Positions 11,543 to 27,767 of a DNA stretch of 64,000 nucleotides are shown here, one piece after another. Positions within the stretch are counted from its first letter, which is position 1; each line of letters starts with the position of its first letter. The notes beneath the pieces are model-generated. The model was not told the origin of the DNA, did no database searches, and saw nothing but the letters and a program-made list of their open reading frames with translations. The position numbers and the translations under genes are program-made. Source of the DNA: Escherichia coli (lineage in GTDB: Bacteria > Pseudomonadota > Gammaproteobacteria > Enterobacterales > Enterobacteriaceae); the NCBI RefSeq assembly GCF_003018255.1, contig NZ_CP027440.1; one strand, written 5' to 3'.

Positions 11543-12268
11543 TTAAATCTCTACGTCGCGGTTGCAATCTTTCGAGTAAATATAGCTGAACGCTTCACCA
11601 CGCCCTACGCCATAACCAGCCTGTAAAGAATAAGCGCCCATAAAGATGTAATCGCCTTTTTTCACCGGGATCCAGTTATTGTCGAGGTTATAAACCCCCT
11701 GACCGGAAAGAATATAGGCACCGTGTTCCTGAACGTGGGTTTCGATATAACCGTGGCTGGCACCTGGTGCAAAAGAGAGGATATGCATGTTCATATCAAA
11801 ACCTAACTCTTTGGGCAGAAAATCCAGCAGAATAACATCGTCCATGCCTTCATAATGAATGCGTTCCAGTTCGCTGGCATTGCCAGAAACCAGCCACGGC
11901 GCATGACCTTCTACCGGAATATAGCGACGCTTATATAAAAAGATTTGGCTGTCTTCGGCCTGGGCGTTAACAAACGTCATTAAGGAGCCTGGCGGGCAAT
12001 AAAGATAGCCACCTTCACTTAAGGTAAATGTTTTCCCTTCGGCTTTGGCAGTGATATTTCCAGAGATCACATACAGGAACGTTTCAATGCCTTCGCCACC
12101 GAAGCCCTGTTGGTTGCCGCCGTTTTGATGCAGTGTGACCAGATAATCAACAAAAGAGGCACCCAGCTTTGGCGTGGAGAGGATTGTCGCGTCACAATTT
12201 TCAAAGCCCGGAATAATATTTTTTACCAGACCGTCTGGTGTTAACAGTGCGAAATTACCGTGTTTCAC
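11543..12268 (-). CDS. allE: (S)-ureidoglycine aminohydrolase (cupin)
   Basis: 241-aa ORF from GTG at 12268; the in-frame upstream extension reads KGYLNNVTGYREDLLANRAI preceded by TAA, i.e. no ATG at the position of the longer annotated form I recall. Confidence 0.8.
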   Translation of the reverse strand: MKHGNFALLTPDGLVKNIIPGFENCDATILSTPKLGASFVDYLVTLHQNGGNQQGFGGEGIETFLYVISGNITAKAEGKTFTLSEGGYLYCPPGSLMTFVNAQAEDSQIFLYKRRYIPVEGHAPWLVSGNASELERIHYEGMDDVILLDFLPKELGFDMNMHILSFAPGASHGYIETHVQEHGAYILSGQGVYNLDNNWIPVKKGDYIFMGAYSLQAGYGVGRGEAFSYIYSKDCNRDVEI

Positions 12269-12453
12269 AATCGCACGGTTAGCCAGTAAATCTTCGCGGT
12301 AACCGGTGACGTTATTTAAATATCCCTTTTATCAAATAGTGTTTTTTGCTGTTTCATAATGTTTCAGGTCGTTCATTATGTTTTTGATTATCAACGGATT
12401 TGCCATTTTTCTTGTTTCAGCTTGTTTCACGTTGTAGCGCTTTGTGCAACGAT

Positions 12454-12479
12454 CGGTGTAGTTAATGGTGTAGTCAATT
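12454..12479. repeat. attL core of the satellite
   Basis: cggtgtagttaatggtgtagtcaatt identical to 26414-26439; imperfect similarity extends ~30 bp to the left on both copies. Confidence 0.8.
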
Positions 12480-13730
12480 GTGATGACCGGAATCAAAATT
12501 ATGAGCAGAGCACTTAACAAACTGAGTGACACACAGCTAAGGAAAATCAACGGCACACCCGCCCAAAAAACAGCCTTTCTTAATGACGGTGGAAACCTGA
12601 GCGTCAGGCATTCAACCAGCGGCCTTTTAACCTGGTATTTCACATACAGGGCCGGAACGGGAAGAGGGACACAACCTGAACGCGTTAAGCTGGGAAATTA
12701 TCCCGATCTGAGCCTGAAAGCAGCCAGGGAAAAAGCCGCACAGTGTCGCGCATGGCTGGCTGAGGGGAAAAATCCACGCTATGAACTGAATTACACCATG
12801 CAGGAAGCGTTAAAGCCTGCAACGGTTGGCGATGCGCTCACCTACTGGCTTGAGTCGTACGCAAAGGAAAAGCGCACAGATTACGAATCACTGAAAAGCC
12901 GGATCAATAAAAACATAATCATCAAAATTGGTGCTATGCCGCTGGATAAATGCGAGCTACGGCACTGGCTGGCCTGTTTTGATCAGGTGGCAAAGCGAAC
13001 ACCTGTTACTGCCGGATTCTTGCTACAGACATGCAAACAGGCGCTTAAATTCTGCCGTAGGCGGCGCTATGCAATCAGCAACGTTCTGGACGATCTGAAC
13101 GTGGCGGACGTTGGGAAAAAACCGGATATAAGCGAACGTGTCTTAAGCACCAAAGAACTGGGCGAGTTATTGCAGGCGCTGGATAAAAAAATATTTTCTC
13201 CTTACTACGTCGCGTTAATCCGCCTCCTGATTGTCTTCGGAGCCAGGACGGTAGAACTGAGGTTATCGGAGATCAGCGAGTGGGATTTTACCGAAATGCT
13301 ATGGACCGTTCCGAAGGAGCACAGCAAAACGAAGGTTGCAATATTCCGGCCCATACCGGAAGCGATCCTGCCGTTCGTCACGCGGCTGGTGGAGCAGAAC
13401 AGGCACACGGGCTTATTACTGGGGGAAGTGAAACAGGAGGCTAGCGTATCGCAGTACGGCAGATTAGCGCACAGGAGGCTAAAACACCTTCAATGGTCAT
13501 TGCATGACATCCGGCGCACCTTTACAACGATGCTGAATGATTTGGGCGTGGATCCTCACGTCGTGGAGCAGCTTACAGGTCATCAGATGCCAGGGATGCA
13601 ACGAGTCTATAACCACTCCCGTTATCTCGATGCGAAACGTGATGCGCTGGATATGTGGACGGAGCGGTTAGGGATACTGGCGGGAGCACATGAAAACGTA
13701 ACCACGCTACCAGTAACCAGAATAAAATAA
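12480..13730 (+). CDS. int: Tyrosine recombinase / integrase (P4-like)
   Basis: 416-aa ORF abutting attL; C-terminal catalytic region (HDIRRTF...RYLD) typical of phage integrases. Confidence 0.85.
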   Translation: MMTGIKIMSRALNKLSDTQLRKINGTPAQKTAFLNDGGNLSVRHSTSGLLTWYFTYRAGTGRGTQPERVKLGNYPDLSLKAAREKAAQCRAWLAEGKNPRYELNYTMQEALKPATVGDALTYWLESYAKEKRTDYESLKSRINKNIIIKIGAMPLDKCELRHWLACFDQVAKRTPVTAGFLLQTCKQALKFCRRRRYAISNVLDDLNVADVGKKPDISERVLSTKELGELLQALDKKIFSPYYVALIRLLIVFGARTVELRLSEISEWDFTEMLWTVPKEHSKTKVAIFRPIPEAILPFVTRLVEQNRHTGLLLGEVKQEASVSQYGRLAHRRLKHLQWSLHDIRRTFTTMLNDLGVDPHVVEQLTGHQMPGMQRVYNHSRYLDAKRDALDMWTERLGILAGAHENVTTLPVTRIK

Positions 13731-14094
13731 TTTTTTTCGTGTTTTTTCAGTATGCGCATACTGGATAAGTGCACAGATACAACGTGAAACAATGTGCAAC
13801 AACGTGACACAATCATGAACAAGAGGCCAAAAAGAATACAGATTTATAAGTTACTGATTTTTATTGCTCAACTGGTTTTTTATACATTAGCGAATTACGC
13901 GTTAAAGCGTGCGAAAAAAGGCATAAAACAAGATTTTATGCCTTTGTATTAACATGAATTTAAATGATTTTATCCTGATTATTCCTCTTTCTGTAAACCA
14001 TACGACATCAACATTTGCCATTCACCACACTAGCGGGAACAATACGACACAATAAGACACCTGATGACTCTTTAAGAAACGAAAGGGGGCAATA

Positions 14095-14283
14095 GTGTTA
14101 AGCACTGATCGGTTTATACGTGAAAAAGAATGCGAAAAGCTAACAGGCCTTAGCCGCTCATGCCGCTACCGCCTGGAAAAGGCCGGACAATTCCCATCAC
14201 GTCGTAAACTTGGCGGGCGTTCTGTTGGCTGGTCTTTATCTGAGGTTTTGGCCTGGAAGGATAGCTGCAAGGCAGTTCACTAA
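14095..14283 (+). CDS. alpA: AlpA-family transcriptional regulator / excisionase-like protein
   Basis: 62-aa ORF (GTG start) with AlpA-type HTH signature LTGLSRS..Y.L...G.FP...LG.RSVGW..SEV..W. Confidence 0.7.
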   Translation: MLSTDRFIREKECEKLTGLSRSCRYRLEKAGQFPSRRKLGGRSVGWSLSEVLAWKDSCKAVH

Positions 14284-14423
14284 AAAGACTGGCGGCACAC
14301 AGTCGCCACACATCCACTAATACAGAGATATAACTATGAAGATTGAATATGCGCCCGAACGTGGGCGGGGATTCGTTCGCCCTGGTGAAACTGAAAAACA
14401 ACAAAATTGGGGTTTTTCAGGCA

Positions 14424-14453
14424 TAAAAAAAGCGGCCCCGATATGGAGCCGCC
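14424..14453 (-). terminator. Putative intrinsic terminator for the leftward RHH transcript
   Basis: Minus-strand hairpin GCGGC-11 nt-GCCGC followed by U7. Confidence 0.4.
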
Positions 14454-14781
14454 TTTCTGAACAATTAACCTGCTGCGCCTTATGTGTATGTGATCCCAAA
14501 CATAAGCACGGGGATGATAGCCGCTATCAGGCTGGTGGGCAATTCCTGTTTTGTCCGTATTGCGCCGCCATTTTCGCTCGTTCAGAGCGCGAATATTTTT
14601 TTAGAAACTCATCAAGGACAAAAGCGCATGGTGCGAATCTTTCTGATTCATGCTCGAGCGCCATATTTTCGTGCTCTCTGTTCGTTTTTTGCGATGGTGT
14701 ATCGCTTGATTCTTTGTTGGTCATTGTGTGTACCTGTAAAGCAATGCGCCGTAGTACCTCACACCACGGCGCTGATAGTTT

Positions 14782-14913
14782 TTATCCTTTGGGGTCTATG
14801 CCGCGCCGCTTTAGTTCAGTGCGCCCCAACTCTTTAAGCCAGTTGGCTAGGCTTATGCCGTCGCTCTGTGCTTCTTTGTCGAATTGCTCTTTTAGCTCTG
14901 GAGAAATTCGCAT
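14782..14913 (-). CDS. Small ribbon-helix-helix (CopG/Arc-like) DNA-binding protein, candidate satellite repressor
   Basis: MRISPELKEQFDKEAQSDGISLANWLKELGRTEL... within ORF 14782-15054; transcribed divergently from the early operon; start codon uncertain, weak RBS. Confidence 0.4.
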   Translation of the reverse strand: MRISPELKEQFDKEAQSDGISLANWLKELGRTELKRRGIDPKG

Positions 14914-14966
14914 TCTGAATTGTGGGGATTGCCCGTCCCCTTTAGGGCTTTTATCGCGTTTGATTG

Positions 14967-15017
14967 TTGACAAGTGGCCACCTATTAAATTAGCCTTTCT
15001 ATTGTTAGGTGGCCACC
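14967..15017. promoter_or_regulatory. Candidate operator/promoter region: two GTGGCCAC palindromes flanking a TTGACA
   Basis: TTGACA at 14967-14972; palindromes GTGGCCAC (14974-14981) and GGTGGCCACC (15008-15017), 34 bp apart, between the divergent RHH gene and the rightward early genes. Confidence 0.45.
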
Positions 15018-15030
15018 TTAACACAAGAGC

Positions 15031-15077
15031 ACTTAAAAAAGCAAAGCCCCGCAAGTGCCATTACCACTCGCAGGGCT
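15031..15077 (-). terminator. Minus-strand intrinsic terminator; candidate 3' end of an antisense RNA
   Basis: On the minus-strand RNA a 13-bp stem (agcccugcgagug / cacuugcggggcu, two G-U pairs) with a 7-nt loop is followed by UUGCUUUUUU; on the plus strand the same stem has two C-A mismatches. Confidence 0.45.
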
Positions 15078-15106
15078 TCTAACCAACAACGTAAACGAGG
15101 AGCCGT

Positions 15107-15308
15107 TATGGTTGCCGTAAATCATATACCACACCTTGTACACACACAAACTGCCTTTGTGTGGCGTTTTCTGGCCCTGAGTGCCGGAGAATCTCAAATC
15201 ATCCACGTAACCGCCTGGACGGAACGCGAAGCGCGTAACCGTTGCCCGTCCGGTTGTGTTGCTGTATTTGCCGCCCGTATTCGTCAGGGGGAAACCTATG
15301 CACAATAA
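15107..15308 (+). CDS. Small hypothetical protein, possibly Icd-like
   Basis: MVAVNHIPHLVHTQTAFVWRFLALSAGESQIIHVTAWTEREARNRCPSGCVAVFAARIRQ; the Icd-like assignment is by recalled similarity only. Confidence 0.35.
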
Positions 15309-15528
15309 AACCACACCGGACGCAGCAGAAGAAGCAATGCAAATACTGATACGTGCGCTCGTTGATGTTACCCACATGGTGGAGATTATGGAGAGAAAAT
15401 CACAGTCGGAGCACGACAAAAGAAAACTTAAAACAATAAAAATAATTGCCAAAAACTCGCTGATAAAAGTTACAGACATCCTTAATGAGGACATTAAAAG
15501 AATAAGGGAGAAAATTTGTGATGCATAA
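15298..15528 (+). CDS. Hypothetical small protein (AT-rich cargo gene 1)
   Basis: 76 aa from ATG 15298 (MHNKTTPDAAEEAMQ...); overlaps the next gene by 11 bp; locally AT-rich. Confidence 0.35.
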   Translation: MHNKTTPDAAEEAMQILIRALVDVTHMVEIMERKSQSEHDKRKLKTIKIIAKNSLIKVTDILNEDIKRIREKICDA

Positions 15529-15748
15529 AATCCCTTTTGAAGTATTAATCCACTCTGAAAACGCATTAATTAAAGCACGCGAAATGAATGCGTTGTTAAT
15601 TAAATTAATTGAAGTGCCGGAAGGTGGTGAGGAATCAGGTGTATTAATGTTTGCAGCCATTCAGACATTACTATCGCCTGTTATTGATGAACTGGATAAG
15701 GCAATGGCAATTCACGAAAATAATAACGCGCCCCACACCGGAGAATAA
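15518..15748 (+). CDS. Hypothetical small protein (AT-rich cargo gene 2)
   Basis: 76 aa; start overlaps the previous ORF, suggesting translational coupling. Confidence 0.35.
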   Translation: MMHKIPFEVLIHSENALIKAREMNALLIKLIEVPEGGEESGVLMFAAIQTLLSPVIDELDKAMAIHENNNAPHTGE

Positions 15749-15753
15749 AAATA

Positions 15754-16053
15754 ATGAAACTTAAATATTCTGGCTTAACTGCCAGTGGCAAAACTCGCAC
15801 TAAATTCATGCGCGGTGATATTTACCGCGACCAGTACGGCGGCACGGTAATGATTAAGGGCGTGGAGGAACGGCGCGTAACTTACCGCCGTGAAGGTTAC
15901 GAATATGATTGCGTGATGCCCGTTTATCAGTTCGACCGTGATTTTTCTCTGGTGCAGGCAGCGCAACGCAGCAAGCCCACCAGCAGGGAGAAAGCACGCG
16001 CCAATATTCAGGAAATAAAAAAGATGCTTAACGTATTCAGGGGTAAAAAATGA
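15754..16053 (+). CDS. Hypothetical protein
   Basis: 99-aa ORF whose stop overlaps the primase start (ATGA). Confidence 0.4.
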   Translation: MKLKYSGLTASGKTRTKFMRGDIYRDQYGGTVMIKGVEERRVTYRREGYEYDCVMPVYQFDRDFSLVQAAQRSKPTSREKARANIQEIKKMLNVFRGKK

Positions 16054-17804
16054 AACTGGCACCGAACGTAAAACAGCAGTCACGCGGCATAAAACACAAA
16101 GAAACAGAAGTCATTATTTTTGCGGGTAGTGATGCCTGGTCACACGCAAAACAATGGCAGGAACATGACGCGCGTATGGCCGGAGATAATGAGCCTCCTG
16201 TGTGGCTTGGGGAGCAGCAGTTATCAGAACTGGATAAGCTGCAAATTGTGCCGGAAGGCAGAAAATCCGTGCGCATATTCAGGGCCGGATATCTTGCACC
16301 AGTAATGATAAAGGCGATTGGTCAAAAGCTGGCGGCGGCTGGTGTACAGGATGCAAATTTTTATCCTGAGGGTATGCACGGCAAGGAGGTGCAGAACTGG
16401 CGCGAATACCTGGCCCGTGAACGCCAGAATCTTTCTGATGGTCTGGTCATTGAGCTTCCGGTAAAGCAAAAGGCGCAACTTTCGCAGATGGCGGACAGTG
16501 AGCGCGCGCAGCTGCTTGCCGATCGCTTTGATGGCGTTTGCGTACATCCTGAAAGTGAAATTGTTCACGTATGGCGCGGCGGGGTATGGTGTCCGGTCAG
16601 CACAATGGAACTTAGCCGCGAAATGGTGGCGATCTATTCAGAGCACAGGGCCACTTTCAGCAAGCGCGTAATCAATAACGCCGTGGAAGCGTTAAAAGTT
16701 ATTGCCGAACCAATGGGCGAGCCGTCCGGCGATTTGCTGCCGTTCGCCAATGGTGCGCTTGACCTGAAAACGGGGGAATTTTCCCCGCACACGCCGGAGA
16801 ACTGGATCACCACGCACAACGGCATTGAGTACACGCCACCAGCACCAGGGGAGAATATCCGCGACAACGCGCCAAACTTTCATAAATGGCTTGAGCACGC
16901 AGCCGGAAAAGACCCGCGCAAGATGATGCGTATATGTGCCGCGCTGTACATGATTATGGCGAACCGGTACGACTGGCAGATGTTTATTGAGGCCACCGGA
17001 GACGGCGGGAGCGGTAAAAGTACATTCACACACATAGCCAGCCTTCTGGCAGGGAAACAGAACACGGTAAGCGCTGAAATGACATCGCTTGATGATGCTG
17101 GTGGACGTGCGCAGGTTGTCGGGAGTCGTCTTATCGTCCTGGCTGACCAGCCGAAATATACAGGCGAAGGAACGGGCATCAAGAAAATCACGGGCGGCGA
17201 CCCCGTGGAAATTAACCCGAAATATGAGAAGCGTTTTACGGCGGTAATCAGGGCGGTGGTGCTGGCTACCAACAATAACCCGATGATATTCACCGAACGG
17301 GCCGGAGGTGTGTCACGTCGTCGCGTAATTTTCCGTTTCGACAATATCGTCAGTGAGGCCGAAAAAGACAGGGAGCTACCGGAAAAGATTGCGGCTGAAA
17401 TCCCTGTCATTATCCGCCGATTGCTGGCGAACTTTACCGACCCTGAGAAGGCACGGGCTTTACTACTGGAACAGCGTGACGGTGATGAAGCTCTGGCAAT
17501 AAAGCAACAGACGGATCCGGTTATTGAGTTTTGCCAGTTCCTGAATTTTCTGGAGGAAGCACGCGGCCTGATGATGGGCGGCGGTGGCGATTCAGTGAAG
17601 TACACGACCAGGAACAGCCTTTACCGCGTCTATCTGGCGTTTATGGCATACGCAGGCAGGAGCAAACCGCTAAACGTGGCTGAGTTCAGCAAGGCCATGA
17701 AGCCAGCGGCGAAAGTTTACGGGCATGAATATATTACGCGAAAAGTTAAGGGAGTAACGCAGACCAACGCAATTACAACAGACGATTGCGACGCGTTTTT
17801 ATAA
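16050..17804 (+). CDS. Replication protein: P4-family primase / D5-like SF3 helicase
   Basis: 584 aa with Walker A GDGGSGKST; domain architecture of satellite pri-rep proteins; iterons immediately downstream. Confidence 0.8.
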   Translation: MKLAPNVKQQSRGIKHKETEVIIFAGSDAWSHAKQWQEHDARMAGDNEPPVWLGEQQLSELDKLQIVPEGRKSVRIFRAGYLAPVMIKAIGQKLAAAGVQDANFYPEGMHGKEVQNWREYLARERQNLSDGLVIELPVKQKAQLSQMADSERAQLLADRFDGVCVHPESEIVHVWRGGVWCPVSTMELSREMVAIYSEHRATFSKRVINNAVEALKVIAEPMGEPSGDLLPFANGALDLKTGEFSPHTPENWITTHNGIEYTPPAPGENIRDNAPNFHKWLEHAAGKDPRKMMRICAALYMIMANRYDWQMFIEATGDGGSGKSTFTHIASLLAGKQNTVSAEMTSLDDAGGRAQVVGSRLIVLADQPKYTGEGTGIKKITGGDPVEINPKYEKRFTAVIRAVVLATNNNPMIFTERAGGVSRRRVIFRFDNIVSEAEKDRELPEKIAAEIPVIIRRLLANFTDPEKARALLLEQRDGDEALAIKQQTDPVIEFCQFLNFLEEARGLMMGGGGDSVKYTTRNSLYRVYLAFMAYAGRSKPLNVAEFSKAMKPAAKVYGHEYITRKVKGVTQTNAITTDDCDAFL

Positions 17805-17817
17805 TTTTTTGTAAAAG

Positions 17818-18044
17818 CCCTCTACCCCATCTACCTGAATGAAGTAAACGCATATTATTCAACATGATAAGTGGGTAGAGGGCTAGGTAGAAGGCTAATA
17901 AAAGCTCTCTACCCCTTCTACCTGATTTTATCAGTTTCAGGTAGCAGGGTAGACGGCAGGTAGAGGAGCCCAAAAAGCTATCTACCCGCTGAAAGCCGCG
18001 CCATTACTGACATGATGAGCATTCGGGTAGATGGGTAGAGGGGG
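17818..18044. repeat. Iteron-type replication origin
   Basis: At least 8 copies in both orientations of GGTAGA(G/T)GG / CC(C/T)CTACC with AT-rich spacers, directly after the primase-helicase gene. Confidence 0.6.
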
Positions 18045-18089
18045 GGGAGGCACAACTAAAAACTTTTTAAACGAGGGGGGGGAAAATAA

Positions 18090-18404
18090 ATGCGCATACA
18101 TCAAAATCACTTAACAAATATGCCAGCCGAAAACATGAATCAGGGGCGACAAATGACCAAAATTCGCAGAGACAGAACACAGGCAAAATATAAAGCGTTA
18201 GACATGACAGAGCTTTCCTTAAAGGTGGCAATCAAAGCGATAGACCACCACACACGGGCAGGATACGCGAAGGAACATCCCGACCTGATAAGCGCATTCA
18301 TGACCACGGCGGCGGCAAACTTTGCCACGTTGACAGAACGTGAGATTGCCGAAGCGGAACAGGTAACAACCATCAACGTTAAAACCGGAGAGGTGGAATC
18401 ATGA
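18090..18404 (+). CDS. Hypothetical protein
   Basis: 104-aa ORF; stop overlaps the ssb start (ATGA). Confidence 0.35.
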   Translation: MRIHQNHLTNMPAENMNQGRQMTKIRRDRTQAKYKALDMTELSLKVAIKAIDHHTRAGYAKEHPDLISAFMTTAAANFATLTEREIAEAEQVTTINVKTGEVES

Positions 18405-18811
18405 CAGCACAGATAGCCGCTTACGGGCGGCTGGTGGACGACCCGCAGGTAAAACAGACCAGCAAGGGCACACCGATGACGCTGGTTCGTATGGCGGTAT
18501 CGCTGCCATGCAGCCAGGCACATGACGGACAGGCGACGTTATGGTTATCGGTTATCGCATTTGGCAAACAGGCCGATTTCCTGGCTAAACATCAAAAAGG
18601 CGATGTTGCCAGCGTATCCGGCACGATGCAGGTAAGCCAGTGGACCGGACAGAACGGGGAAACGCGGCGGGGGTATCAGGTTATTGCAGACAGCGTAATC
18701 AGTGCCCGCGCGGCACGTCCAGGCGGGAACAGACGCAAAACCACAGGCACACAGGGTAATCAGCCACCAGCGGGAGGCGATGACCCTTACGGTGACGGTA
18801 TTCCGTTCTGA
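18401..18811 (+). CDS. ssb: Single-stranded DNA-binding protein
   Basis: 136 aa; Gly/Pro-rich linker and acidic C-terminal tail DDPYGDGIPF resembling the SSB D-I-P-F tip. Confidence 0.6.
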   Translation: MTAQIAAYGRLVDDPQVKQTSKGTPMTLVRMAVSLPCSQAHDGQATLWLSVIAFGKQADFLAKHQKGDVASVSGTMQVSQWTGQNGETRRGYQVIADSVISARAARPGGNRRKTTGTQGNQPPAGGDDPYGDGIPF

Positions 18812-18821
18812 GGGGGTGACG

Positions 18822-19070
18822 ATGGTACATGACCGCATAGCGGAGGAACTCGAGGCAAAAGGCTTTTACCGGAGGGCGTCGGCGCGATGGGGTGAAGTCA
18901 TGCAACTGGTGGAGACAGACAAGGAACGGCATCAGGTTACGATGCGACGGCTGGAATGTTCCAGGAAGGCACAGAGGCCACCGGAGCCGCCAACGGAGAA
19001 CTACGCAGACCTGAGAAATGCAGTAAATCGCACTTACGCAGACATGGGGCTGAGCAAATTAGCAGAGTAG
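18822..19070 (+). CDS. PerC-family transcriptional regulator (putative)
   Basis: MVHDRIAEELEAKGFYRRASARWGEVM... matches the PerC-type AEELE.KG.WRRA..RW motif; start chosen at ATG 18822. Confidence 0.45.
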   Translation: MVHDRIAEELEAKGFYRRASARWGEVMQLVETDKERHQVTMRRLECSRKAQRPPEPPTENYADLRNAVNRTYADMGLSKLAE

Positions 19071-19092
19071 GAATATCAGAACCACACCACGC

Positions 19093-19125
19093 AGCCGGAG
19101 CAATCCGGCTTTTTGTTATTTTTTG
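19093..19125 (+). terminator. Intrinsic terminator after the PerC-like gene
   Basis: Hairpin agccgga-gcaa-tccggct followed by TTTTTGTTATTTTTT. Confidence 0.55.
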
Positions 19126-19336
19126 TAAATTATTTGTTCGTGGTTGTTCCACGTTGTTCACTGAGCGGATCGGCATATTTTACCCGAACTGAATCATGAT
19201 TATTCTCGCCCGTGGTGCCAGGACGCTGGGGCCACTTTCCCGCCTGTTAATGTGCTCGCCAATATTCATTACCAGGCGGGAAAACGATCGGTGCGATTGC
19301 TGATTTCCTTATGAAAAACGGTTGAGTGTTTGCCGC

Positions 19337-19374
19337 GTCCTGGAGTTCCTTACTTAACCCCAGGACTTTTTTTT
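19337..19374 (+). promoter_or_regulatory. Hairpin plus T8 tract abutting the capsid start codon
   Basis: 7-bp stem gtcctgg/ccaggac (16-nt loop) followed by eight T that run directly into ATG 19375; no SD sequence. Confidence 0.4.
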
Positions 19375-20532
19375 ATGCCGAGAATAATCGAATTACGCCA
19401 GCAGAAAACCGCCATTAAAAATCAGATGCGCGACATGCTGGAGAACGCTGAAAAAGAAAACCGCAGTCTTAACGATGCTGAGGGCGCAAAATTTGACGAA
19501 TTACGCGCTAAAGCTGAATCCCTCGATAAAGACATTTCCCGCCTTGAAGCCATTGCAGACGAAGAGCGCAGCAAGCCAGGTAAAAGCAGCCAGACCACTG
19601 ACCCCGCAGAACTACGCAGCTACATTCTGACAGGTGAAACCCGCGCATTAAGTACAGGCGTTCCCGCTGATGGTGGTTATACCGTTATCCCCGAACTGAA
19701 CACCGAAATCATGCGAATGCTGGCGGATGAATCCACCATGCGCCGCATCTGTACCGTGAAAAAAATCAGCAGCAACGAGTTTAAGCAGCTTGTTTCCGCT
19801 GGCGGTGCGACCGTTAACCACGGTGAAGAGGGTAAGGCACGCGAACAGACCAGCACCCCGCAGATTAACGAGGTGAGCATTAAGCTGTATCCGGTCTATG
19901 CGTACCCGCGCACCACACAGGAAATCGTGGATTTTTCCGATGTGGACATCCTTTCATGGCTGACGGGTGAGATTGGCGACACCTTCACGGAAACCGAAGA
20001 AAGCGATCTGGTTGTGGGCGACGGTGACAAAAAAGCAAAAGGTTTTTTATCCGTACCCCGTGCAGAGAAGAACGACAAAGAGCGTGATTTTGGTACGTTG
20101 CAGGTAATTAAACCTTCCGAATCTCTGGCGTGGACATCTGCGGACCCGCTGATCGACCTGAAATTTGCATTACGTAAAAAATACCGCAAAAACGCGGTCT
20201 GGGTGGTTAACTCCACGACGGCGGCAAAACTCCAGAAGGTGAAGAACGCGAACGGTGATTACATCTGGCGTGACCGTTTACAGGCGGGTGATCCTGATAC
20301 GTTGCTGGGCCTTCCGGTCGAATATCTGGAGTTTATGCCTGATAACGTTATTGCCCTGGGTGACTTCAAACGCGGTTACTACATTGTTGATCACGAAACA
20401 GGTGTTCGCACCAGACCGGACAACCTCACAGAGCCGGGCTTCATCAAAATTTTCACGCAGAAATATTTAGGCGGTGGCGTGGTGGATTCGAACGCGATCA
20501 AGATTCTGGAACTGCCACAGGACGACGATTAA
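19375..20532 (+). CDS. Major capsid protein (HK97 fold) with N-terminal coiled-coil scaffold-like region
   Basis: ORF 19330-20532 (TTG) trimmed to ATG 19375 (MPRIIELRQQKTAIKNQ...). Confidence 0.8.
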   Translation: MPRIIELRQQKTAIKNQMRDMLENAEKENRSLNDAEGAKFDELRAKAESLDKDISRLEAIADEERSKPGKSSQTTDPAELRSYILTGETRALSTGVPADGGYTVIPELNTEIMRMLADESTMRRICTVKKISSNEFKQLVSAGGATVNHGEEGKAREQTSTPQINEVSIKLYPVYAYPRTTQEIVDFSDVDILSWLTGEIGDTFTETEESDLVVGDGDKKAKGFLSVPRAEKNDKERDFGTLQVIKPSESLAWTSADPLIDLKFALRKKYRKNAVWVVNSTTAAKLQKVKNANGDYIWRDRLQAGDPDTLLGLPVEYLEFMPDNVIALGDFKRGYYIVDHETGVRTRPDNLTEPGFIKIFTQKYLGGGVVDSNAIKILELPQDDD

Positions 20533-20543
20533 CAGCATACAGA

Positions 20544-20571
20544 AGGGGCTTAAAAGCCCCTTTAGTGTTTT
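20544..20571 (+). terminator. Putative terminator between capsid and protease genes
   Basis: Hairpin aggggctt-aa-aagcccct followed by TTAGTGTTTT. Confidence 0.45.
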
Positions 20572-21144
20572 ATGGGTGAAAAAATTATGAAGAGTATGGA
20601 AATCCGGTCATCGGAAATCACCACCAGCGGAGCCGGTACGCTGACGGGCTACGTTGTTCGCTGGGATAAGCTTTCAGAACTGTTATGGGGTGAGTTTTAC
20701 GAAAAATTCCAGCGGGGGGCGTTTACTGAATGGCTTGCGGCGGGTAATGACGTTCGCGGCCTGTATGAGCATGACCACAGCATGTTACTGGGGCGCACCC
20801 GTTCCGGCACGCTGAAACTGGAAGAGGACGAAACAGGGTTACGCTTTGAACTGACCCCACCGGATACCAGTACAGGGCGCGACGTTATCGAACTGGTTAA
20901 GCGTGGGGACATCTCGGGGATGAGCTTTGGCTTTCGCTCCCGTAAGGATGTATGGGATACCACAACAGATCCATGCGTGCGCACCGTGCTGGTGGCGGAA
21001 CTGTACGAAATTACCGTTACATCGGTACCGGCTTACCCCGATTCCGGCGTGGAGCTGGCCCGCCGTTCCCTGTATGAGCAGCACCCCGAAAAAATGCCGC
21101 GTGCGGATAATCGCCGCTGGTGGGTGGATTTAGCGGGGGTGTGA
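20572..21144 (+). CDS. Prohead maturation protease (HK97 family)
   Basis: 190-aa ORF following the capsid gene; length and position fit a prohead protease. Confidence 0.75.
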   Translation: MGEKIMKSMEIRSSEITTSGAGTLTGYVVRWDKLSELLWGEFYEKFQRGAFTEWLAAGNDVRGLYEHDHSMLLGRTRSGTLKLEEDETGLRFELTPPDTSTGRDVIELVKRGDISGMSFGFRSRKDVWDTTTDPCVRTVLVAELYEITVTSVPAYPDSGVELARRSLYEQHPEKMPRADNRRWWVDLAGV

Positions 21145-21145
21145 T

Positions 21146-22357
21146 ATGTGGCCTTTCAGAAGAAAAAAAGAGCAGCGCAGCATGACGCTTGATAAGTTTA
21201 TGGCGCTGGCTGGCACATCGAACACGGGGGCGGGTGAGTACGTATCATCGGGGACAGCGGAATCACTGCCCGCCGTCATGAACGCCGTGACGGTCATCTC
21301 TGAGGCGGTGGCTACCATGCCGTGTTACCTGTACCTGGTACGCAATGAGAAGGGGAAGGAGGCCCGCGAGTGGCTTGATTCTCATCCGGTCGATCACATC
21401 CTCAACGAGCGCCCGAACGCGTGGCAGACTCCCTACCAGTTTAAGCGAATGATGATCCGCCACTGCCTGTTAAACGGTAATGCTTATGCGGTGATTCAGT
21501 GGGGGCGTGATGGTTTTCCGGTGGCTTTACATCCTTACCCGCCGCAGTCGGTGAACGTGGAGCAGACAGGTGATCATAACTGGCGCTACTGCATCACTGA
21601 CGCCTACACCGGAAACACCCGCAACTATTTACCGTGGGAGGTTCTCCACCTTCGTTACTCCACGGATGACGGTTTTATGGGGCGCTCACCTGTAACCATC
21701 TGCCGCGAATCGCTGGGGCTTGGGCTGGCCCAACAACGCCACGGCGCGAGCGTGATGCGTGATGGCATGATGGCGGCAGGGGTTATCACGTCAGGCGAAT
21801 GGCTGGACGGCGTGAAGGGCAAACAGGCATTAGCCGCACTGGAACGCTACAAAGGGGCCAGAAACGCCGGAAAAACGCCCATCCTTGAAGGGGGGATGAG
21901 CTATCAGCAGCTGGGCATGAGTAATCAGGATGCCGAATGGCTGGCCTCCCGTCGCTTCACCATTGAAGACATCGCCCGAATGTTCAACGTCTCGCCGATT
22001 TTTTTGCAGGAATACAGCAACAGCACCTACAGCAACTTCAGCGAGGCAAGCCGCGCATTTCTCACCATGACGATGCGCCCGTGGCTGGCGAACTTTGAGC
22101 AGCAGATAAAAAACGCCCTGCTGGTGGCCTCGCCTGTACCTGGTATCCGGTATCAGGTGGAGTTTGACAGCGCGGACCTGTTACGGGCCACACCTGGCGA
22201 ACGCTTTGCCACCTATGAACGCGGCATCAAATCCGGCGTTATGTGCCCGAACGAAGCCCGCGAACGTGAAGGGCTGTCCCCGCGTGATGGTGGTGATGAG
22301 TTCAGCCAGGCATGGAAACAGGAAGTAAAAATCAGCGAGGGAGAAAAACCGGAATGA
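21146..22357 (+). CDS. Portal protein
   Basis: 403-aa ORF in the head module; portal-like by length and position. Confidence 0.8.
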   Translation: MWPFRRKKEQRSMTLDKFMALAGTSNTGAGEYVSSGTAESLPAVMNAVTVISEAVATMPCYLYLVRNEKGKEAREWLDSHPVDHILNERPNAWQTPYQFKRMMIRHCLLNGNAYAVIQWGRDGFPVALHPYPPQSVNVEQTGDHNWRYCITDAYTGNTRNYLPWEVLHLRYSTDDGFMGRSPVTICRESLGLGLAQQRHGASVMRDGMMAAGVITSGEWLDGVKGKQALAALERYKGARNAGKTPILEGGMSYQQLGMSNQDAEWLASRRFTIEDIARMFNVSPIFLQEYSNSTYSNFSEASRAFLTMTMRPWLANFEQQIKNALLVASPVPGIRYQVEFDSADLLRATPGERFATYERGIKSGVMCPNEAREREGLSPRDGGDEFSQAWKQEVKISEGEKPE

Positions 22358-22692
22358 ACATAGGGCGACTGCGTGACAGGATAACGATTCAGACCCTGAA
22401 ACAGACCAGGGATATAACCGGCGAAATACTCGAAACGTGGGAGGACGGTCACACACTCTGGGCAAGCGTGAACATGGTCAGCAGCAAGGAGGCCATTTCA
22501 TCGGGCGCAGAGCTGGCGATTGGTACCGTAAGGATCTGGATACGGTACCGGAAGGACATCAACGCCACCTGCCGGATAAAGGTCAGTACGGGGCCGCTGG
22601 CGGGGCGTGTACTGAATATCATCGGGCAGCCGCTGCCGGATGCCGCCAGGACACGCCTTGAAATTCTTTGTCGTGAGGGCGCGGAAAAATGA
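22354..22692 (+). CDS. Head-tail adaptor / head closure protein
   Basis: ATG 22354 overlaps the portal stop (ATGA); MNIGRLRDRITIQ... Confidence 0.55.
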   Translation: MNIGRLRDRITIQTLKQTRDITGEILETWEDGHTLWASVNMVSSKEAISSGAELAIGTVRIWIRYRKDINATCRIKVSTGPLAGRVLNIIGQPLPDAARTRLEILCREGAEK

Positions 22693-22985
22693 CAGAAGAA
22701 CTTATCACCCTGGAAGAAGTGAAACTCCATTGCCGCATCGATGGCGACGATGAAGACCAGTTAATCAGCGGATACATTGCCGCATCGCTTGAGGCGTGCC
22801 AGATACACATAGGCAGGCGCTTTGATGACGGGCTGGAGTTCACGCCAGCCATAAAGATTGGCTGCATGATGTTTATCGCTCACCTGTATGAAAATCGCCA
22901 GATTGTCGCGGATAACGCAAAAACACGCGTACCCATGACGATAGGCGCACTCTGGACGGCTTACCGTGATGTGGGGGTGTACTGA
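22689..22985 (+). CDS. Head-tail connector (gp6-like)
   Basis: 98 aa; overlapping stop/start with neighbours on both sides. Confidence 0.55.
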   Translation: MTEELITLEEVKLHCRIDGDDEDQLISGYIAASLEACQIHIGRRFDDGLEFTPAIKIGCMMFIAHLYENRQIVADNAKTRVPMTIGALWTAYRDVGVY

Positions 22986-23425
22986 TGCCGTGGCAACCAT
23001 TAAGACGATGCACAGAACCAGGCTGTAACAGGCGCGTTAAATCCGGCAAGTGTGAGGAGCACAGGCGGGCGGCATGGCGTGCAGAGGATGCCAGACGAGG
23101 ACACCGCCGCGCGCGTGGATATTCCAGACAGTGGGACAAATACCGCGCCATGTATCTGAGTAAAAACCCGTTATGCGTGCGATGCCTTGAGAAGGGGATA
23201 TATACGCCCGCCGTGGTGGTGGATCACATTATCCCGATTAATGGCGGTGATGATGTTCTCTTCTGGCCCGAATGGAACCATCAACCATTGTGCCAGGCGT
23301 GTCATAACCAGAAAACGAAATGGCTTGATCCGGCAACAAAAAGCAAGCGTGCCGCAGGTGGATTTCGTGAAGAGGAAGAACGGGCTGCTAACCGCAATAA
23401 CTGGATGTATGACGCTGATGAATGA
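22985..23425 (+). CDS. HNH endonuclease (packaging-associated)
   Basis: Cys-rich zinc-finger and HNH motifs (CVRCLEKG...VDHIIPINGG...CQACHNQKT); sits upstream of terS/terL as in cos-packaging HK97-like systems. Confidence 0.8.
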   Translation: MPWQPLRRCTEPGCNRRVKSGKCEEHRRAAWRAEDARRGHRRARGYSRQWDKYRAMYLSKNPLCVRCLEKGIYTPAVVVDHIIPINGGDDVLFWPEWNHQPLCQACHNQKTKWLDPATKSKRAAGGFREEEERAANRNNWMYDADE

Positions 23426-23591
23426 GCGGGAACAAAACCGCCTTATCCGTGGACTTATAAGGCAGCGTGACGCATGGAAGACACAGGAAACAGGGCATAA
23501 AGATAAAGCGTCAGGACGCGCAGAACGCATCACAGCGAAGCGATTAACCGACCGTGACCGCGAGGTTATGGAATGTTTCCGCAATCGCTGA
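23420..23591 (+). CDS. Hypothetical small protein
   Basis: 57-aa reading frame MNEREQNRLIRGLIRQRDAWK... between HNH and terS; may not be expressed. Confidence 0.25.
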
Positions 23592-23713
23592 TGAGGCTGT
23601 ATGACGGGGTGGGGGGCGTTTTCAGGACAAACCCGACCCCGCCGGGCACCGAACGCCTCCTCAAATTTTTATGCACGGGAATTTTTTGAAAAATAATCTG
23701 GCGAAAAATAAGC

Positions 23714-24070
23714 ATGGCAAGACCACCGAAAGCCCCCGCCTACCTGGATGATATCGCCGTGAAGCAGTGGCGGGAAAAATCTAGGCAGCTTGCGGAACGG
23801 GGAGACCTGACCCCCGCCGACTGGAGCAATCTGGAACTGTATTGTGTCAACTACTCCATTTACCGGAAAGCCGTTGCAGACCTTGCGGCGCGCGGGTTCA
23901 GCATTGTTAACAGTCAGGGCGGCGAGAGCAGAAACCCCGCATTAAGCGCAAAATCCGACGCTGAAAGAGTGATGATAAAAATGGCCTCTTTGCTCGGTTT
24001 TGACCCGATAAGCCGCCGTAAAAATCCACCGGAAACAGAAGAAGAGGACGAGCTTGACCGCCTGGAATAA
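23714..24070 (+). CDS. terS: Terminase small subunit (P27 family)
   Basis: 118 aa, MARPPKAPAYLDDIAVKQWRE...; overlaps the terL start. Confidence 0.75.
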   Translation: MARPPKAPAYLDDIAVKQWREKSRQLAERGDLTPADWSNLELYCVNYSIYRKAVADLAARGFSIVNSQGGESRNPALSAKSDAERVMIKMASLLGFDPISRRKNPPETEEEDELDRLE

Positions 24071-25715
24071 GTACGCAGAAGACGTAAAAACGGGCAAAAT
24101 TCCGGCCTGTAAACGGCTGAAACAGGCCGTTAAACGGTACTTTTCGGACCTTGAAAGCCCCCTTTACACGTTCGATCGTGAGGTTGTGGAGCGGTTTATT
24201 GCCTTTTCCAGGGTGTGCCCGCACGTAAAAGGGCCGATGCGTGGCAGACCCATTGAGCTGGAGCCGTGGCAGCAGTTCGCCTTTGCGTGCATCCTCGGCT
24301 TTAAGGTTAAGGCCACCGGACGGCGCAAATACACGAGCGCCTTTATCGAAGTGCCGCGCAAAAATGCGAAATCCACGACCGCCGCGATTCTGGCTAACTG
24401 GTTTCTGATTATGGAGAACGGGCAGCAGGATATTTACACCGCAGCGGTGAGCCGTGACCAGGCGCGGATCGTTTTTGATGATGCGCGTCAGATGTGCCTT
24501 TTATCCCGACCGTTACGCAGGCGGGTGAATATTCAGGCCCACAAGGTGATGCACCCGAAAAGCAACAGCCTGTTAAAGCCGCTGGCAGCAAAAGCGGCAA
24601 CCATCGAGGGAACAAACCCCAGCCTTTCCATCGTGGACGAATACCACCTACACCCCGATAACGGCGTTTATTCCGCGCTTGAGCTGGGGATGGGCGCACG
24701 TCCCGAAGGGCTGTTATTTGCCATTACCACATCGGGCAGTAACGTCGTTTCAACCTGTAAACAGCACTATGATTATTGCTGCCAGATCCTGGACGGCGAA
24801 GAGGTCAACGATTCAATTTTTGTGCTGATTTACGAGCTGGACGACGAAAACGAGGTTGATGATCCGGCGATGTGGATAAAGGCTAACCCTAACATCGATG
24901 TTTCCGTGGATCGTGAAAAACTGGCCTCAACCATCCAGAAAGCGCGGGGTATTCCGTCGCAATGGGTGGAGATGATGACAAAGCGATTTAATATCTGGTG
25001 CCAGGGGGCTACCCCGTGGATGGGTAACGGCGCATGGGCTGAGTGTGCCGGAACGTTCACGGAGGAAGATTTACACGGGCAGGAGTGTTACGCGGGGCTG
25101 GACTTATCATCAACCAGCGATATTTCCAGCGTGTGCTATGCCTTTCCGGTCGGTAAAAATATCATGCTGGTTTCCCGTCATTATCTGCCGGAGTTCCAGC
25201 TACAGAACCCCGCCAATAAAAACCGCGCTGTCTATCGCCAGTGGGCTAAAGCGGGCTGGATACGCACAACGCCAGGTGACTGCATTGATTACGACCGGAT
25301 CAGAGATGACATCATGCAGGATGCGGAGAAATTTAATATCAGGCTGGTGGGCTTTGATACGTGGAACGCCACGCATCTCAGGACGCAATTACAGGGGGCT
25401 GGTTTTGAGGTGGAGCCGTTCCCGCAAACCTACCTCAGATTCAGTCCGGCGGCGAAATCGTTCGAAGTTTTTGTTAACCGCAGGGTGATTGTGCATCGTG
25501 GCGATCCGGTGTTGTCCTGGTCGATGAGTAACGTCGTGATGCAGAGTGACGCGAACGCCAATATCAAGCCGAACAAGAAAAAATCACCGAACAAGATAGA
25601 CCCGAGCGTAGCGGCGCTGATGGCGTTTGGTACATTCCAGGCAGAGCATGAGGATTTTGCTTTTGATATAAGCGACAGCCACCGCCAGAAACTGGAAGAA
25701 TTTAGCGGGGTGTAA
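24054..25715 (+). CDS. terL: Terminase large subunit
   Basis: 553 aa with ATPase and nuclease regions; final large gene before attR. Confidence 0.85.
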   Translation: MTAWNKYAEDVKTGKIPACKRLKQAVKRYFSDLESPLYTFDREVVERFIAFSRVCPHVKGPMRGRPIELEPWQQFAFACILGFKVKATGRRKYTSAFIEVPRKNAKSTTAAILANWFLIMENGQQDIYTAAVSRDQARIVFDDARQMCLLSRPLRRRVNIQAHKVMHPKSNSLLKPLAAKAATIEGTNPSLSIVDEYHLHPDNGVYSALELGMGARPEGLLFAITTSGSNVVSTCKQHYDYCCQILDGEEVNDSIFVLIYELDDENEVDDPAMWIKANPNIDVSVDREKLASTIQKARGIPSQWVEMMTKRFNIWCQGATPWMGNGAWAECAGTFTEEDLHGQECYAGLDLSSTSDISSVCYAFPVGKNIMLVSRHYLPEFQLQNPANKNRAVYRQWAKAGWIRTTPGDCIDYDRIRDDIMQDAEKFNIRLVGFDTWNATHLRTQLQGAGFEVEPFPQTYLRFSPAAKSFEVFVNRRVIVHRGDPVLSWSMSNVVMQSDANANIKPNKKKSPNKIDPSVAALMAFGTFQAEHEDFAFDISDSHRQKLEEFSGV

Positions 25716-25728
25716 TGAGGTCAGCAGC

Positions 25729-26010
25729 ATGACAGAAGCCGAAATACTGCGATTAATCCGCCGCGTCTCTGGAATCAGCCAGCAGGCTGACGAACAGACC
25801 ACGCAGCCGGACAGCGTGACAGCCGAAAATTATGCGCGTGTTGTTGCTGAGGTGATGCGCCGTGATGGTATCCAGCTTAATGATGCGGATATGCGCGACA
25901 TACGGATCCGCGTTCTTGAAATGCTGGCCTACAATCGCCGTGTAGAGATGTACAGGGAGAAAGAGAAAATTACGTACAACTGGAAGAAGCCGGAGCGGTT
26001 ACGGCGGTAA
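25729..26010 (+). CDS. Hypothetical protein
   Basis: 93-aa ORF after terL. Confidence 0.4.
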   Translation: MTEAEILRLIRRVSGISQQADEQTTQPDSVTAENYARVVAEVMRRDGIQLNDADMRDIRIRVLEMLAYNRRVEMYREKEKITYNWKKPERLRR

Positions 26011-26012
26011 CG

Positions 26013-26082
26013 TGTTGATTTAAAGGCGGCTCAATTTTGAGCCTCGTAACTGGTTGATATTTCCGGCAACCTCAATTTGAGG
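26013..26082. repeat. Two tandem GTTGAT...CTCAATTTGAG palindrome units; candidate cos/packaging or operator site
   Basis: Unit 1 gtgttgatttaaaggcggctcaattttgagcc and unit 2 ggttgatatttccggcaacctcaatttgagg, ~40-bp period, in the 400-bp non-coding right end of the satellite. Confidence 0.4.
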
Positions 26083-26413
26083 AGAGCGGAAACATCATCC
26101 CTCACATTCTGAATGGTCATAATGACCACGCAGGCCATCGAGGCAACCATAGCGATCATCGTTACGGTTGGAGCTTTCCGCCATTGGTGGAAAAGGTGCA
26201 CATCTGGATCATCATTACGGTGATCAAGGGTATGTAAAACCCACCAGCCTGATTAAAGGTTAACCGGAAAAAAAATCCGGTAGCCCCGTTATGGGGATCC
26301 CCATATCGACATTAACGCCCCTCATGAATTGGTGCGCTTCCCCCTGGAAAGATTACCCGCCTGTATATTTCTTGTGTCTATTTGTTCCACGTTGTTTCAT
26401 ACAGTGCACCGAA

Positions 26414-26439
26414 CGGTGTAGTTAATGGTGTAGTCAATT
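26414..26439. repeat. attR core of the satellite
   Basis: Identical 26-mer to 12454-12479. Confidence 0.8.
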
Positions 26440-26531
26440 TGCGATTTTTGGCACTTTTTGTAGTGCGGGTTATTTAATTAAATCAATGTGTTATTGAAAA
26501 TAAGTTATAGATATATCCCATTTATAACTCC

Positions 26532-27767
26532 TTATTTCTGCCAGGCAAGTTGATAAAGCATGAGTGCCAACGTTTTGACCCCTTCGGCAAGGTCGGTAAT
26601 ATTGGTGCGTTCCGCCGGGTTATGGCTGATCCCGTTGATGCTGGGAATGAAAATCATGCAGGTCGGCACGCGAGGCGCGAAAATTTGCGCGTCGTGCCCG
26701 GCACCACTGTGCATTACCCGGTAGTTCTGTTTTTCACTTTCACACAATTCTGTCAGGGTGGCGACCAGCTCCTTATTCATCGGCACGGGTTCTTCGTCCA
26801 TCCATAAATCGATATCAATACCAATGTCCATTTCATCGCAAATCGCCCGCATGTCGTTTTCTAACTGCTGGGTGAAATCGCGCAGCACGGCAGCGTCGGT
26901 ATGACGACAATCAATGGTGAACGTGGTTTTACCCGGTACCACATTCACCGTATTCGGACGCGGCTCCACCTTGCCAAAGGTAAGCACCAGCGGGTCGCCC
27001 ATCTTTTTCGCTTTTTCGATCGACTGATGGCAAATGCGACTGAAAGCGTAAACCGTATCACGACGATAACCCATCGGCGTGGTGCCTGCATGGTTTGATT
27101 CGCCGTTCAGCGTCACCGTATAACGACGCTGCCCGACAATTGCATTCACCACGCCAATTGACTGCCCATTACTTTCCAGCACACAGCCCTGTTCGATATG
27201 CAGTTCGACAAAGGCTTTAATATCCTGACGCGGAGTTAGTGGGGCGTTCGGCAGAGTAAATCCGCAAGCCTTCATCGCATCGACAAAACTATTTCCTTTG
27301 GCATCACAGATATTCCGCACGTCGTCAGGATTCGCCAGCCCAAAGATATTTTTACTGCCCCAGAAGACATACGGGAAGCGGCTGCCTTCTTCTTCTGCCA
27401 TCGCCACCACTTCGACCGTACGTAACGGCGCGCCGTATTGCGTTTTCAGCCAGTCAATTGCCAGCCACGCCGCCAGCGCACCGAATTGCCCGTCGAGGTT
27501 ACCGCCGTTAACCACGGTATCGATATGCGAACCGCTCAGAACCACTTCCTGTGGATATTCGGTGCCACTCAGGCGACCGTATAAATTCCCCACTTCATCG
27601 AAACGTGTTTCCAGCCCGCTTGCTGCCATTCTTTTTTTAAACTGCTGCTGAGTTTCCAGCCATTCCGGCGAATAAAGTAAACGGGTCATCCCACCCGCTG
27701 GGTCAGCGCCAAAAGAGGAAAGCCAGGGCAGCGTTTCTTCTATGGCTTGACGGAAATGTGTAATCAT
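26532..27767 (-). CDS. allC: Allantoate amidohydrolase
   Basis: ORF 26532-27785 trimmed to the second ATG (MITHFRQAIEETLPWL); M20 peptidase family. Confidence 0.9.
   Translation of the reverse strand: MITHFRQAIEETLPWLSSFGADPAGGMTRLLYSPEWLETQQQFKKRMAASGLETRFDEVGNLYGRLSGTEYPQEVVLSGSHIDTVVNGGNLDGQFGALAAWLAIDWLKTQYGAPLRTVEVVAMAEEEGSRFPYVFWGSKNIFGLANPDDVRNICDAKGNSFVDAMKACGFTLPNAPLTPRQDIKAFVELHIEQGCVLESNGQSIGVVNAIVGQRRYTVTLNGESNHAGTTPMGYRRDTVYAFSRICHQSIEKAKKMGDPLVLTFGKVEPRPNTVNVVPGKTTFTIDCRHTDAAVLRDFTQQLENDMRAICDEMDIGIDIDLWMDEEPVPMNKELVATLTELCESEKQNYRVMHSGAGHDAQIFAPRVPTCMIFIPSINGISHNPAERTNITDLAEGVKTLALMLYQLAWQK

Follow-up and report, generated by a model that had tools for sequence, protein, structure and literature searches.

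A probable iteron-type replication origin downstream of a P4-alpha-like initiator gene in a phage-inducible chromosomal island of Escherichia coli

We analyzed a 64-kb stretch of Escherichia coli DNA (64,000 nucleotides of contig NZ_CP027440.1, hereafter the window) that carries a satellite of the capsid-forming phage-inducible chromosomal island (PICI) type. Our subject is the 285-bp gap between the gene of its 584-aa replication initiator (Pri-Rep) and the open reading frame (ORF) that starts at 18090; the coordinates of the features are collected in Table 1. An earlier note had read this gap as a satellite origin bound by its own initiator, with at least eight copies of GGTAGA(G/T)GG, in both orientations and separated by AT-rich spacers, directly after a P4-type primase gene. 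The repeats do lie where it had put them, at 17818-18044. From the 23 copies of GGTAGA that the window contains on both strands, 11 fall within 17821-18039 and 12 are spread over the remaining 63.8 kb. With the background rate outside the cluster as the expectation, 0.04 copies are expected per 219 bp, and the Poisson probability of finding 11 or more is around 1e-23. A twelfth, degenerate copy (GGTAGC) is found at 17940, and the first iteron starts 14 bp past the stop codon of the initiator gene. Both orientations are indeed represented, with seven copies on the plus strand and five on the minus strand.

Regarding the motif itself, the exact 9-mer GGTAGA(G/T)GG is present five times, always in the region (0.48 copies expected in the whole window), while GGTAGANGG gives eight copies in the region and one elsewhere in the window (1.0 expected). 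The count of at least eight is hence correct only if position 7 is left free, and the 9-mer form is too narrow. The repeat is better given as RGGTAGANRR, the consensus of 122 copies profiled across 11 loci, with a core of 6 bp, or about 10 bp with its flanks, that occurs in both orientations. The G directly before GTAGA is near-invariant in this profile (117 of the 122 copies), while GTAGA is fixed by construction, since it served as the search anchor.

The twelve copies form three dyad units (Table 1). In each of them, minus-strand iterons stand to the left and plus-strand iterons to the right of a spacer, and those flanking it are divergently oriented. The earlier description of the spacers as AT-rich holds for those inside units 1 and 2 and for the stretch at 17892-17907 (62% AT), but not for that of unit 3. 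A perfect 12-nt inverted repeat, AGCCCTCTACCC/GGGTAGAGGGCT, spans unit 1. Units 1 and 2 can be considered duplicates because of a 27-nt direct repeat (17812-17838 versus 17899-17925, 93% identity), and the direct repeats of 27-30 nt in the region, spaced 73-87 bp, indicate that the units arose by duplication. Inside the spacer of unit 3 lies a non-iteron block, CTGAAAGCCGCGCCATTACTG, which has a single occurrence in the window.

Among 5426 complete E. coli genomes, 1360 carry the replication module and 543 carry origin-like sequence. Thirteen GGTAGA-type origins showed two layouts, distinguished by a single iteron. When 11 diverged origins of this type were aligned, 58% of the core positions were invariant, versus 24% of the non-core positions (Fisher p 3e-7), and the mean pairwise identity is 85% for the cores and 63% for the spacers and other non-core positions. 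Purifying selection acts on the cores but not on the spacers. The CTGAAAGCCGCGCCATTACTG block is near-invariant in the same 11 origins (16 of 21 columns), with variation in the adjoining spacer bases. The earlier note had proposed that conservation of the repeats as coding sequence in relatives would speak against an origin. The alignment contained several 1-nt indels, which rule out that the repeats are coding, and no annotated feature underlay the origin matches in 40 sampled from the 543 genomes. We therefore rejected a coding function, and consider the minus-strand ORFs at 17773-17973 and 17982-18110 as mechanical ORFs and not genes.

The initiator gave matches to D5_N, DUF5906 and Pox_D5 in Pfam and to the ‘P4 family primase C-terminal’ domain in NCBIfam. 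Its residues 188-432 match the PriRep5 helicase of the Staphylococcus aureus pathogenicity island (SaPI) SaPI5 (PDB 7OLA, E 4e-15), and residues 488-576 match the winged-helix origin-binding domain of P4 alpha (PDB 1KA8, E 8e-6). By BLASTP, residues 141-573 align with residues 324-756 of P4 alpha at 40.6% identity over 434 positions (E 3e-112). It is thus established by homology (7OLA, 1KA8 and the D5_N, DUF5906 and Pox_D5 matches) that the protein is a P4-alpha-like superfamily 3 (SF3) helicase, of the self-loading kind, with a C-terminal winged-helix origin-binding domain.

The N-terminal domain is a different case. Its first ~140 residues matched no family in Pfam or NCBIfam, and the same search that detected the zinc ribbon (residues 30-66) and the Toprim domain (residues 210-299) of P4 alpha found neither of them in the window initiator. 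Foldseek returned nothing below E 0.001 for this domain against the PDB, and hhalign gave a probability of 0.1% for its alignment with the Toprim region of P4 alpha. A search for homologues returned only Escherichia and Shigella fragments, so no wider family emerged. A Toprim-like fold that lacks the usual acidic signature is predicted for the domain. Primase activity of the N-terminal domain was rejected, since neither Pfam/NCBIfam nor Foldseek nor hhalign supports it. What had been called a P4-type primase gene is therefore P4-alpha-like in its helicase and origin-binding parts, but the ‘primase’ label is unproven. An N-terminal domain of ~140 aa is common to at least three unrelated PICI helicases.

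In other loci, different initiators occupy the place between the same flanking genes, and each comes with its own repeat at the origin position. A RepA / AAA_25 helicase is accompanied by AAGTGAGG (loci L004 and L020), a diverged RepA allele by AAGTGGGG (L019), a DUF927 helicase by 11 copies of TAACCCGC (L005), and a second P4-alpha-like allele by 11 copies of GGTGAA / CTGTTCACC (L008). The latter initiator is 49% identical to P4 alpha; it is 100% identical to the window protein over residues 1-75 and 33-58% identical in the helicase and C-terminal parts. Its origin repeat is the type 1 iteron of P4, TGTTCACC, the P4 repeats having been read from the P4 record. The positions and orientations of the L008 repeats (offsets 17-, 27-, 68+, 91-, 110-, 142+, 152+, 163+, 186-, 228+ and 236+) are almost identical to those of GGTAGA in the window (17-, 26-, 71+, 83+, 104-, 113-, 137+, 145+, 156+, 177-, 223+ and 231+). 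By comparing both loci, we can conclude that the scaffold is conserved while the iteron is exchanged together with residues ~150 to the end, so neither the N-terminal domain nor the flanking genes can be what reads the repeat. The repeat co-varies with the helicase and C-terminal part, and not with the N-terminal domain or the flanking genes. This fits a C-terminal winged helix that reads the repeats, and across the GGTAGA, TGTTCACC, AAGTGAGG or AAGTGGGG, and TAACCCGC alleles the comparison shows each iteron to be specific to its cognate initiator. The CTGAAAGCCGCGCCATTACTG block is not present in the TGTTCACC-type origin of L008. This sister PICI origin, at 2932-3218 of the L008 locus (E. coli E200139), is of a type found in 674 of the 5426 E. 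coli genomes.

This co-variation bears on two other functions that the repeats could have. One could argue that they are operator sites for a transcription regulator of the downstream operon of single-stranded DNA-binding protein (SSB) and packaging genes, as ORF 18090 and a conserved ribosome-binding stretch, AAAACTTTTTAAAC...GAGGGG, follow the region downstream, and short inverted repeats are common targets of regulators. However, the repeat changes with the initiator allele while the DUF4222, hypothetical and SSB genes stay constant, and twelve sites over 220 bp would be atypical for an operator. Promoter and terminator prediction gave no result in 17600-18300, a sigma-70-like promoter included, and we consider an operator function highly improbable. 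As the island has its own TerS and TerL, and terminase small subunits often bind repeated sites, the repeats could also be a packaging site (pac or cosB-like) bound by the small terminase of the island. Against this, E. coli 2013C-4282 (L001) combines a 99% identical origin with a different capsid, a decoration protein and no TerL, and the island of E. coli CFT073, EcCICFT073, has the same iterons with no TerS and is packaged through cos. The repeats hence go with the initiator rather than with the packaging genes, and a packaging site is extremely unlikely.

EcCICFT073 also links the locus to experiment. A temperature-sensitive plasmid that carries its pri-ori segment is kept at the restrictive temperature, while the pri-delta-ori and delta-pri-ori versions reduced or abolished plasmid maintenance (Fillol-Salom 2018, ISME J, PMC6092414). 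According to the same authors, E. coli PICIs have the same organisation as SaPI origins (PMC6092414). We located EcCICFT073 in the CFT073 genome and derived its iterons from there. Its Pri-Rep is 98.3% identical to the window initiator, the gap directly 3' of the gene also contains 11 GGTAGA cores, and the flanking DUF4222, hypothetical and SSB genes, the conserved block and the ribosome-binding stretch are as in the window. Both islands differ in the spacer sequence, which has diverged, and in their packaging genes: EcCICFT073 has capsid and decoration homologues only, no TerS, and relies on cos packaging by the helper phage, whereas the island in the window has a complete capsid/terminase module of the capsid-forming type. 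Given this orthology to a pri-ori for which replication has been demonstrated, the segment in the window is very probably the vegetative replication origin of the PICI. The idea of a satellite origin bound by its own initiator has thus gained support: the EcCICFT073 ortholog replicates, the cores are conserved, and the repeats follow the initiator allele and are not coding.

The locus also resembles the origins of SaPIs (Ubeda et al.; Qiao et al. 2022, PMC9371898). In these, rep is directly followed by 6-12 iterons of 5-6 nt, with copies in opposite orientations about an AT-rich centre. An SF3 helicase that loads itself recognises them through its C-terminal winged helix (PMC9371898). Iteron binding and melting are ATP-independent, and specificity differs among alleles (PMC9371898). 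The likeness extends to the number of iterons (11 GGTAGA and one GGTAGC, within the range of 6-12), to their place directly 3' of pri-rep, to the opposed iterons around an AT-rich spacer in units 1 and 2, and to the SF3 helicase with its winged helix. On the other hand, the origin in the window belongs to a Gram-negative host, its iterons are unrelated in sequence to those of SaPIs, it has three dyad units instead of one central AT-rich region, and no primase domain of the prim-pol type is fused or adjacent to the initiator in the window.

Some observations weigh against reading the segment as an origin in this way. The spacer of unit 3 is not AT-rich. With respect to EcCICFT073, a plus-strand copy at offset 83 (the window, layout A) replaces a minus-strand copy at offset 94 (CFT073, layout B). 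The swap breakpoint near residue 150 leaves the helicase and winged-helix domains unseparated, and iteron binding by the C-terminal domain is inferred from homology and co-variation. Finally, the cluster found 3' of alpha in P4 is crr, an auxiliary cis element, and the ori lies ~4.5 kb away.

This last point calls for a closer comparison with P4. The helicase and origin-binding domains of both initiators are homologous (40.6% identity, with a C-terminus that matches 1KA8), and P4 has crr, made of dyad iteron units, directly 3' of alpha. However, alpha contains a zinc-ribbon/Toprim primase part of ~320 aa that the window protein does not have, the type 1 iteron of P4 is TGTTCACC and not GGTAGA, and P4 has a two-part arrangement of ori and crr where the island in the window has a single GGTAGA cluster. 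The origin reading is supported, but the analogy with P4 needs correcting, as the P4 record has crr, and not the annotated ori, directly after alpha. Hence, one could argue that the cluster in the window is an auxiliary cis element like crr, to which the initiator would bind and which would stimulate or regulate replication that starts elsewhere in the island, for instance by looping or handcuffing. The P4 crr is of the same dyad type, with three minus-strand repeats, an AT-rich stretch and two plus-strand repeats, and the window initiator is a homologue of alpha. Yet GGTAGA appears elsewhere in the island only once, at 13250, with no second cluster, and in EcCICFT073 the pri gene and the region downstream of it sufficed for plasmid maintenance. 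Since the island has a single cluster, and as the CFT073 experiment indicates, the cluster must act as the sole origin despite its crr-like position, and we regard an auxiliary role as very unlikely.

Iteron plasmids of the RepA, pi or TrfA type are characterised by DnaA boxes, by direct repeats 17-22 bp long that all share one orientation, and by a helicase-free Rep with two winged helices. The region in the window differs from them in its 6-bp core, in the use of both orientations and in its helicase initiator. No DnaA box with one mismatch or less was found in 17805-18089, and a DnaA-dependent origin was rejected on this basis.

By analogy with P4 alpha and the SaPI Reps, the origin would work as follows. 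The helper phage would switch on alpA and the island would excise. The 584-aa protein would bind the RGGTAGANRR iterons via its C-terminal winged-helix domain (488-576), and SF3 hexamers would assemble at both sides of an AT-rich spacer. That of unit 1 (17836-17873) is the best candidate, and we infer it to be the likeliest melting site. The hexamers would melt the spacer without a separate loader, followed by bidirectional unwinding. More tentatively, since the initiator shows no detectable signature of a catalytic primase, priming would probably fall to a host primase or some other partner, and the SSB of the island may coat the unwound strands. Whatever the initiator type (primase-family, RepA or DUF927), a DUF4222 gene precedes it in the loci seen, which suggests a conserved partner of the shared N-terminal domain. 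It is conceivable, though we think it rather unlikely, that the origin contains more than iterons, with CTGAAAGCCGCGCCATTACTG (17989-18009) as a distinct functional site (a defined site of priming or initiation, or one for a host factor and specific to GGTAGA-type initiators) and with the N-terminal domain as a catalytically dead adaptor that would recruit a common partner to interchangeable helicase/origin cassettes. Candidates for such a partner would be the DUF4222 protein, the host primase or a factor from the helper phage.

Concerning the host island, it has the features of a PICI: int, alpA, listed genes that are all on the plus strand, and the 26-bp direct repeat CGGTGTAGTTAATGGTGTAGTCAATT at both ends, 14 kb apart, in line with the usual PICI size of about 10-15 kb. 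These repeats probably represent the cores of attL and attR. Near the island ends no tRNA gene was found, and a tRNA integration site was rejected. The gene set coincides with that of capsid-forming PICIs (bioRxiv 10.1101/2022.09.08.507074). Using a 17-kb query that included ~1.3 kb and 1.5 kb of flanking sequence, the best whole-island match among complete E. coli genomes covered 82% of the query with 96% identity. An intact SSB gene follows the origin in 11 of the 18 fetched loci. No Rfam family was above threshold in 12000-27000, and a structured RNA was rejected accordingly.

Table 1. Features of the origin region and of the island that hosts it (window coordinates).
Feature	Coordinates	Strand	Details
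Host island, capsid-forming PICI-type satellite	12454-26439	+	14 kb; bounded by 26-bp direct repeat
26-bp direct repeat CGGTGTAGTTAATGGTGTAGTCAATT	12454-12479 and 26414-26439		brackets the island
int	12480-13730	+	
alpA	14095-14283	+	
DUF4222 gene	15754-16053	+	overlaps initiator start by 4 bp
Initiator (Pri-Rep)	16050-17804	+	Toprim-like N-domain (predicted) ~1-140; SF3 helicase D5_N/DUF5906 ~150-440; C-terminal winged-helix origin-binding domain 488-576
Intergenic origin region, whole	17805-18089	.	between initiator gene and next ORF; orthologous to EcCICFT073 ori, L007 8997-9284
Dyad unit 1	17821-17891	.	minus 17821, 17830; 38-nt spacer 17836-17873, 71% AT; plus 17874, 17886
Dyad unit 2	17908-17964	.	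minus 17908, 17917; 17-nt spacer 17923-17939, 76% AT; plus 17940 (GGTAGC), 17948, 17959
Dyad unit 3	17981-18039	.	minus 17981; 39-nt spacer 17987-18025, 46% AT; plus 18026, 18034
Conserved non-iteron block CTGAAAGCCGCGCCATTACTG	17989-18009	+	inside unit 3 spacer
Small hypothetical gene		+	before SSB
SSB, island-encoded	18401-18811	+	Pfam SSB, E 5.5e-17; downstream of origin
Major capsid	19330	+	
Prohead protease	20572	+	
Portal	21146	+	
Head completion and connector proteins		+	between portal and HNH
HNH	22985	+	
TerS	23714	+	
TerL	24054	+	

Some relatives and sequence details deserve mention in their own right. The nearest replication module, 99% identical and with an identical initiator protein, is that of E. 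coli 2013C-4282, in an island located between roxA and phoQ. Its packaging module differs from that of the window (18800-26000) and consists of capsid, decoration protein and TerS only. A 99% identical origin beside another packaging module indicates that the cassette moves between classical and capsid-forming PICIs. In E. coli VL40 (L010, 1503-4051), an ISSso6 (IS110-like) insertion splits the initiator gene; the downstream origin is retained, and several of its cores are degraded to AGTAGA or GTAGAC. Runs of eight G are present at 18040-18047 and 18074-18081, the second being the ribosome-binding stretch of ORF 18090. In close relatives these runs vary in length or are interrupted (G7, GGGGGTG), which could reflect slippage-prone tracts or sequencing error.

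Taken together, our results support a genuine PICI origin that is known in kind and whose allele family has already been tested experimentally. Because the near-identical CFT073 module had been described and tested before, the origin is real but ordinary: this kind of element, its layout and its function are already published, and the value of the finding lies mainly in annotation. The by-products of modest interest are the iteron swap on a conserved scaffold, the N-terminal domain common to unrelated helicases and the block at 17989-18009. The natural chimeras, which have the same N-terminal domain and flanks but another helicase, C-terminal domain and iteron on the conserved scaffold, offer a design for specificity swaps. 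For the family, the segment marks the origin of a satellite widespread in E. coli (543/5426 genomes with origin-like sequence, 1360/5426 with the module), in which the helicase, the origin-binding domain and the cognate iterons move as one unit between classical and capsid-forming PICIs.
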